From Escherichia coli (GTDB lineage: Bacteria; Pseudomonadota; Gammaproteobacteria; Enterobacterales; Enterobacteriaceae): DNA of 41,409 bases. The stretch lies in the NCBI RefSeq assembly GCF_003334765.1, contig NZ_QOWT01000034.1, one strand, 5' to 3'. The notes below the pieces were generated by a model that was given only the letters and a program-made list of their open reading frames with translations, was not told the origin of the DNA and ran no database searches. Made by a program: the position numbers and the translations under genes. Shown here in pieces: positions 6,331-6,375 of this stretch (the first letter of the stretch is position 1; each line of letters begins with the position of its first letter).

Positions 6331-6345
6331 TAGTCCACTCTTCTA

Positions 6346-6369
6346 AGCCCGGTCTTGCCGGGCGTTTTT
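6346..6369 (+). terminator. Short hairpin plus T-run between fmt and rsmB (weak terminator/attenuator candidate)
   Basis: CCCGG-tcttg-CCGGG stem followed by CGTTTTTA; only a 5-bp stem, so weak. Confidence 0.3.
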
Positions 6370-6375
6370 ATACTT

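Follow-up and report, generated by a model that had tools for sequence, protein, structure and literature searches.

The window, by which we mean the whole stretch of DNA that was analysed (41,409 nt), is from Escherichia coli K-12, and the 901-nt stretch spanning its fmt-rsmB junction is 100% identical to XL1-Blue and was found in all of the complete E. coli genomes searched (5426/5426). In the RefSeq annotation, dprA lies on the minus strand and is followed by def, fmt, rsmB, trkA and mscL on the plus strand. Window positions are converted to MG1655 coordinates (NC_000913.3) by adding 3428831, the anchor being the rsmB ATG, whose position 6376 corresponds to 3435207. This start codon agrees with RefSeq; an in-frame TTG at 6355, which would open a 436-aa ORF, was rejected as a mechanical call, given that RefSeq and the homologues begin at ATG 6376. 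The features considered here are the following.

4784..4813, plus strand: promoter-like site 5' of def, CTGTCA-18-TAGAAT (promoter scan)
5383..6330, plus strand: fmt coding sequence, methionyl-tRNA formyltransferase, GTG start, TGA stop at 6328-6330
6331..6375, plus strand: fmt-rsmB intergenic spacer, 45 nt
6347..6353, plus strand: 5' arm of the hairpin, GCCCGGT (fold; covariation)
6354..6356, plus strand: loop CTT, a 5-nt loop if the U-G pair opens (fold)
6357..6363, plus strand: 3' arm of the hairpin, GCCGGGC (fold; covariation)
6364..6371, plus strand: U-rich tract G UUUUU A U, 6 U in 8 nt (GUUUUUAU) (sequence)
6368, plus strand: Term-seq 3' end, MG1655 3435199, listed as a 'primary' fmt end (PMC7815308; offset conversion)
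6376..7665, plus strand: rsmB coding sequence, no Shine-Dalgarno match, beginning 12 nt past the hairpin
7687..9063, plus strand: trkA coding sequence, the downstream gene that read-through would supply

Transcripts that reach the fmt-rsmB junction presumably start at the promoter-like site upstream of def. The two hexamers of this site also appear, in a SELEX table of constitutive RpoD promoters, in the row for the smf/def divergent spacer, which covers both the smf and the def promoters and names the operon def-fmt (PMC3946193).

On the coding strand, 16 nt beyond the fmt stop codon, begins the hairpin GCCCGGT-CTT-GCCGGGC (6347-6363, plus strand), whose stem is built of six G-C pairs (6347-6352 with 6358-6363) and closed towards the loop by a U-G pair (6353/6357). 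Next come G6364, a run of five T (6365-6369) and ATAC. For the RNA of the 45-nt spacer, the predicted fold is this hairpin and nothing else, at -13.7 kcal/mol (z -3.2), a stability reached by 2 of 200 dinucleotide shuffles, and the hairpin still forms within a 140-nt context. Intrinsic terminators combine a GC-rich stem-loop of about 5-14 bp and a short loop with a U-rich tract directly 3' of the stem; both are present here, the tract starting 1 base past the stem. An all-G/C stem of 6-7 bp, with -13.7 kcal/mol, is nothing unusual for such a terminator. The K-12 sequence is weak in its U-tract (G, U5, A, U, A, C), which is short and interrupted, and which is 6 nt shorter than in most Enterobacteriaceae, whose tract reads ATTTTTATTTTT. 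The first-pass annotation had described a small hairpin with a T-tract in the 45-bp fmt-rsmB spacer, and both the sequence and the RefSeq boundaries bear this out. The CCCGG/CCGGG stem that it named is present and is one or two pairs longer than stated (GCCCGG/CCGGGC plus the U-G pair); its verdict that the stem is short and the case therefore weak was right that there is a weakness and misplaced it, the stem being ordinary and the U-tract being the weak part.

The minus strand of the spacer gives a weaker fold without a T-run and no convergent gene is present, so a function on the opposite strand was rejected. Rfam scans, run on the region at E up to 10 and on the whole window at gathering scores, gave nothing above noise at the spacer. 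Within the window, one match alone reached the gathering score, that to Alpha_RBS, the alpha operon ribosome binding site (13608-13719, minus strand, 102.7 bits), which is expected for that region of the E. coli chromosome.

How much weight can a pattern of this kind carry? A generic scan for terminator-like sequences was permissive, with 10 matches in 5 kb, where 5.5 would be expected, and 31 in 20 kb, where 21 would be. Consequently, a pattern match alone is weak evidence, and the case for the element has to be made from its position, its conservation and the mapped RNA end. The same figure, 21 expected per 20 kb under lenient criteria, is what speaks for a chance palindrome without function; against it, the exact pattern GCCCGG-N3-8-CCGGGC occurs as a single copy in the 41-kb window and in none of 100 shuffles (0 expected).

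Conservation was studied in 80 loci, obtained with Fmt as the query against one genome per species (Enterobacterales, Vibrionales, Aeromonadales, Pasteurellales and Alteromonadales); wherever a locus extends far enough, rsmB lies directly 3' of fmt. The arms of 35 distinct Enterobacterales sequences were aligned without the loop centres, to hold the register, and 96.7% of the stem cells in this alignment pair, the outer three stem pairs having been fixed by the regular expression that collected the sequences; slid registers pair in just 23-55%. Double-sided changes occur at four of the seven stem pairs: C-G is replaced by U-A and G-C by A-U, and the seventh pair is found as U-A, U-G, C-G, A-U or G-C. 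The covariation score was reached by 0 of 500 column shuffles, which ignore phylogeny. Thus, it is the structure and not the sequence that is conserved on the transcribed strand, the outer three pairs being preset. The loops are free to vary in sequence and in length (3-12 nt), and the U-G or G-U pairs (pair 7 in K-12, pair 6 in strain STEC299) fit the plus-strand RNA only. Taken together, the variable loops, the G-U pairs fitting one strand and the lack of a minus-strand T-run indicate a plus-strand RNA structure, and the loop variation argues against a double-stranded DNA protein site. As judged by comparative sequence analysis, the fmt-rsmB hairpin is selected as an RNA structure.

The form seen in Enterobacteriaceae is GCCCGG-loop-CCGGGC, usually followed by ATTTTTATTTTT, with a variable loop and upstream flank. 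Paired variants are found in several genera (GCCCAGG/CCTGGGC, GCCCGGG/CCCGGGC, GCCCGGC/GCCGGGC), as well as in Yersinia (GCCCGAT/ATCGGGC), in Xenorhabdus (GCCTGAA/TTCAGGC) and in Pantoea sp. 1.19 (L048; GCCTGGC/GCCAGGC). The recurrence of hairpins at this junction was counted in the gammaproteobacterial fmt-rsmB spacers of at least 25 nt (n=70), with a cut-off of -8 kcal/mol or better. A strong hairpin was present in 59/70 spacers, against 3.5 +/- 1.7 in shuffles, and 41 of the 59 carry a T-run, defined as at least 5 T in the 8 nt past the last G-C pair, against 0.25 in shuffles; a stricter motif was found in 36/69 spacers against 2.3 expected. The Vibrionaceae hairpins included in this recurrence are of unrelated sequence. 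With a stem that covaries, its compensatory changes already refuting chance, with the strong enrichment at the same junction across many genera and with an RNA end mapped at the site, the probability that the hairpin is a palindrome arisen by chance is practically negligible. The remaining 18 of the 59 strong hairpins, in Pectobacterium, Dickeya, Brenneria, Edwardsiella and Aeromonas, are without a T-run, which implies that they are kept there for a reason other than canonical termination.

Some spacers hold additional structures (loci L026-L030, L037, L039, L047, L049 and L050). A second hairpin, GCTGRC-TTTN-GTCRGC, occurs in the fmt-rsmB spacers of Yersinia, Rahnella and Photorhabdus, where a run of 5-6 T ends 4 nt, and the stem 10 nt, before the rsmB ATG. 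A related hairpin with a poor T-run, GCTGAC-GAAA-GTCAGC, lies 18 nt from the ATG in Xenorhabdus (L050), and the Photorhabdus spacers are without the first hairpin. A different second hairpin, without a T-run, is present in L020-L022 and L043. The spacer of Yersinia aldovae (L026; 291 nt, positions 3449-3739 of the locus) is highly structured (-101.7 kcal/mol), and the insert between its fmt stop and the conserved hairpin contains ...AATCCCGATGAGCTTATACAAGTAAGTGATTCGGGTGA..., which we take to resemble the core of the ERIC/IRU enterobacterial repeat.

Within E. coli, the tract 3' of the stem occurs in at least three alleles (loci L002, L003 and L085-L088; window 6357-6375). The K-12 type, G+T5, is carried by 2283 genomes identical over 80 nt. 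A+T5 occurs, among others, in O157:H7; it falls within a class of 2101 genomes, three of which were sampled. The third allele, in about 1009 E. coli genomes, has a 51-nt spacer, 6 nt longer, which reads ATCTTTATATTTATAC and carries the degraded tract AUCUUUAUAUUU; its stem is kept and even improved, the loop-closing U-G pair having become U-A.

The in vivo evidence comes from published Term-seq of MG1655 (Adams et al. 2021, PMC7815308, supplementary file 1), in which a curated 3' end is listed at 3435199 on the plus strand. Converted to the window this is position 6368, the fourth T of the T-run and 5 nt past the stem, so that the transcript ends in ...GCCGGGCGUUUU; the flanking sequence listed for this end is the sequence in the window. 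An RNA 3' end in or just after the U-tract, as intrinsic termination leaves in vivo, is therefore present in these published data (PMC7815308). The Term-seq check asked for in the first-pass annotation is thus answered by a curated end lying inside the T-run. The end is covered by 2260.75 reads in LB at OD 0.4 and 753.4 in M63 at OD 0.4 and is not in the list for LB at OD 2.0 (PMC7815308); this absence is the only hint of condition-dependent modulation at the fmt-rsmB hairpin. The table of Rho regions defined with bicyclomycin has no entry under fmt or rsmB (supplementary file 2), and in supplementary file 3 the end was filtered out of the LB 0.4 sheet, so that it carries neither a Rho score nor an intrinsic-terminator score, and kept in the M63 sheet (PMC7815308). 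From the way this filter works, its retention would mean that a start mapped in minimal medium lies at most 200 nt upstream, in which case rsmB may not depend on read-through alone. The next plus-strand Term-seq end is at 3438498 (window 9667), past mscL and antisense to arfA (PMC7815308). The supplements of the SMRT-Cappable-seq and TERMITe papers contain no fmt or rsmB entries or coordinates, and a full-text literature search for the hairpin sequence gave no match.

Term-seq reports stable 3' ends, among which those made by termination and those trimmed back to a hairpin look the same. Hence, the hairpin might act mainly as a barrier to 3' exonucleases, the mapped end being a processing product at a place where the polymerase does not stop. 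A long def-fmt-rsmB-trkA RNA would be cut downstream, for example by RNase E in an A/U-rich stretch, and trimmed to the hairpin, so that the def-fmt segment is stabilised and the distal part decays. The end lies just 5 nt past the stem, nearer than the usual release point, which is typical of trimmed ends. Moreover, the 18 strong hairpins without a T-run in other genera and the degraded T-run allele of E. coli, which keeps and even improves the stem (U-G to U-A), fit a role of the hairpin itself, and a conserved hairpin within fmt (5428-5452) with a poor U-tract also bears a Term-seq end. Against this, a T-run accompanies 41/59 of the hairpins where 0.25 would be expected, and in Enterobacteriaceae the run (ATTTTTATTTTT) abuts the stem in nearly every genus while the upstream flank varies. 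The two roles are also compatible, a terminator hairpin stabilising the RNA that it releases. We hold it to be rather unlikely, on balance, that the hairpin is mainly an exonuclease barrier.

The position of the hairpin, so close to a start codon, also raises the question of translation. The hairpin and U-run could primarily be the translation-initiation region of rsmB, with S1-mediated ribosome loading on the U-run and the hairpin as its upstream boundary; in a variant, the U-run pairs with AAAAAC (rsmB codons 2-4) and the AUG is presented in the loop. Indeed, the anti-Shine-Dalgarno duplex of rsmB (-2.7 kcal/mol) is near the background mean of -1.9, when def, fmt and mscL reach -6.4, -5.9 and -9.0, and 14 of 79 rsmB homologues are at -4 kcal/mol or better, most Enterobacterales ranging from -3.3 to +2.2. 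In addition, the hairpin stands 10-18 nt from the ATG in Escherichia, Citrobacter, Enterobacter, Yersinia, Rahnella and Photorhabdus, and GUUUUU (6364-6369) is complementary to AAAAAC (6380-6385), the helix being part of the minimum-energy fold. However, an RNA 3' end inside the U-run is left unexplained by initiation, the distance from hairpin to ATG extends from 10 to 66 nt across genera and the U:A helix is weak. Such a function, as read from the sequence, would add a role and not replace termination, and as the primary purpose of the element we find it very improbable; the T-rich stretch could nonetheless be conserved partly as the translation-initiation region of rsmB. Two observations can be added on this region. 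The best anti-Shine-Dalgarno duplex of rsmB uses bases inside the hairpin (6356-6375), and that of trkA is also weak (-3.2; 7667-7686). In the minimum-energy fold of the read-through RNA, the rsmB AUG sits in the 10-nt loop of the weak GUUUUU/AAAAAC helix (6364-6385).

A regulated attenuator would require a competing structure, for which CCGGGC in fmt (6310-6315, Pro-Gly codons) offers itself as antiterminator, the position of the ribosome deciding between the two. This is an exact 6-nt complement of the 5' arm, 31 nt upstream, extended to 7 nt in some E. coli strains, and in a few lineages it matches a changed arm (CCTGG with GCCCAGG in L020, ATCGG with GCCCGAT in L028). The complement is, however, simply a conserved Pro-Gly dipeptide (CCN GGN), in which the Pro wobble base changes among G, C, T and A while the arm stays unchanged in many genera (L015, L016, L018, L007, L008). 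In most loci the complementarity does not exceed 5 nt, a length that shuffles reach as well; 6310-6315 pairs locally in the 140-nt fold, and there is no Rfam match. Conserved, mutually exclusive pairing of the kind seen in attenuators and riboswitches was not found, as in most genera the upstream complement does not track the changes in the arm, and the proposal was rejected; we give it a lower probability still than a primary role in initiating rsmB translation.

The reading that we prefer, and consider probable, is that the element is a leaky intrinsic (Rho-independent) terminator ending the def-fmt message. RNA polymerase coming from the def promoter would transcribe the GC-rich hairpin (6347-6363) and then the short U-tract. 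In some complexes, the hairpin would form over a weak rU:dA hybrid, leading to release in or just past the U-run; the RNA so released would be the one seen in vivo to end at 6368, from which a few nucleotides may have been removed by 3' exonucleases. The remaining complexes would read through and produce the mRNA for rsmB and trkA. The operon would thereby fall into two parts, def-fmt with more transcript and rsmB-trkA with less. That the end at 6368 stems from termination and not from trimming appears the better interpretation, and rsmB and trkA would depend mainly on read-through.

Leakiness is suggested by several lines of evidence: the short and interrupted U-tract, the lack of a convincing promoter within fmt, the universal presence of rsmB and trkA next to fmt on its downstream side, the lack of a further Term-seq end before 3438498 and conflicting operon descriptions. 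With regard to promoters, our scan found no convincing sigma-70 site in the last 270 bp of fmt and no site at threshold anywhere within this gene, the best relaxed candidates scoring 7-8 of 12. With regard to the operon, it is def-fmt in the SELEX table (PMC3946193), def-fmt-rsmB in another study (PMC7264889) and def-fmt-rsmB-trkA in a third, which cites Cho et al. 2009 (PMC12690207). A partial stop would yield exactly this disagreement between def-fmt and def-fmt-rsmB-trkA. What counts against termination is that 18/59 of the hairpins of relatives have no T-run and that the degraded tract AUCUUUAUAUUU is present in about 1000 E. coli genomes. The proposal of the first-pass annotation that a partial terminator precedes rsmB-trkA is therefore supported as far as a terminator is concerned, by the Term-seq end at 6368 and the selected RNA hairpin; that it is partial is plausible, as suggested by the evidence just listed.

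Compared with known systems, the element is like canonical E. coli intrinsic terminators in having a GC-rich stem-loop of ordinary stability with a U-run directly after it, on the transcribed strand and just past a stop codon, with an in vivo 3' end in the U-run; unlike them, its U-tract is short and interrupted and the next start codon comes 12 nt past the stem. REP and other intercistronic hairpins block 3' exonucleases, as does the malE-malF REP. The fmt-rsmB hairpin resembles these stabilising elements as a stable intercistronic hairpin with an RNA end just 3' of it, and in some genera without a U-run. It differs from REP in being single-copy in the 41-kb window, in its length of 17 nt and in having its own U-run in most genera, and membership of the REP/BIME families was rejected in the absence of a multi-copy consensus palindrome. 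At 17 nt it is presumably too short for, and unlike, the REP consensus. Partial terminators inside operons, through which co-transcribed genes come to be expressed unequally, form a further class: the accD terminator is an operon-internal partial terminator that is read through into folC (PMC7264889), and internal terminators in operons are catalogued by Conway et al. 2014 (PMC4161252). Like these, the fmt-rsmB element lies between genes reported as one operon, with a stable upstream end and expressed downstream genes; unlike in accD-folC and the Conway set, its leakiness is what we infer.

Further RNA ends and hairpins were noted along the operon. Inside fmt, a 10-bp hairpin covers codons 16-24 (5428-5452, plus strand; GCAGCGCGTC-ATCTC-GACGCGCTGT, then TGTCTTCTGG), and Term-seq ends are mapped there at MG1655 3434286/3434288 (window 5455/5457), with roughly double the reads of the end that follows fmt, an intrinsic-terminator score of 4.96 and a Rho score of 0.96 (PMC7815308). 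All ten pairs (10/10) are kept across most Enterobacterales, and in Yersinia a change of CGT to CGC is matched by GAC to GGC, which is compensatory and replaces Asp with Gly. Synonymous variation is reduced in the stem codons, whose wobble positions are almost fixed with an entropy of 0.43-1.03 bits, against 1.43-1.97 at neighbouring fourfold codons, and those in the loop vary. Possibly, selection maintains this hairpin as a stop or stabiliser within the ORF, leaving an RNA of def only, and it may merit more attention than the one between fmt and rsmB. A 3' end internal to def is mapped at MG1655 3433762 (window 4931, plus strand), 72 nt into the gene, in LB at OD 0.4, with a low intrinsic-terminator score of 1.6; in M63, the def-internal end is instead at 3433856 (PMC7815308). 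Directly past the trkA stop, a 12-bp A/T-rich hairpin (9064-9093, plus strand; TAATAAGGCGTC-TAAT-GACGCCTTATTA, with the tail TTTCCCTTTG) overlaps a promoter-like site for mscL, and the published lists contain no curated Term-seq end at it (PMC7815308).

A more speculative idea, to which we give little credence, is that two conserved hairpins, one 45-69 nt into fmt and one after fmt, partition def-fmt-rsmB-trkA into graded outputs (def > fmt > rsmB-trkA), and that the second U-run doubles as a Shine-Dalgarno-less ribosome loading site for rsmB. If this were true, a single 25-nt element would couple the strength of termination to the translation of rsmB, and the U-tract alleles (G+U5, A+U5 and the degraded one that is 6 nt longer) would tune output differently between lineages. 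In any case, models of terminator strength could be tried on the natural U-tract alleles of E. coli, which make up a small test set.

To summarise, the fmt-rsmB element is already known, its 3' end standing in a curated public list and its kind being textbook, and its importance is slight beyond a tidy annotation. As a leaky stop, it would account for an operon described both as def-fmt and as def-fmt-rsmB-trkA. It would also let E. coli, by simple means, keep RsmB and TrkA below deformylase and formyltransferase while a single promoter serves all four.
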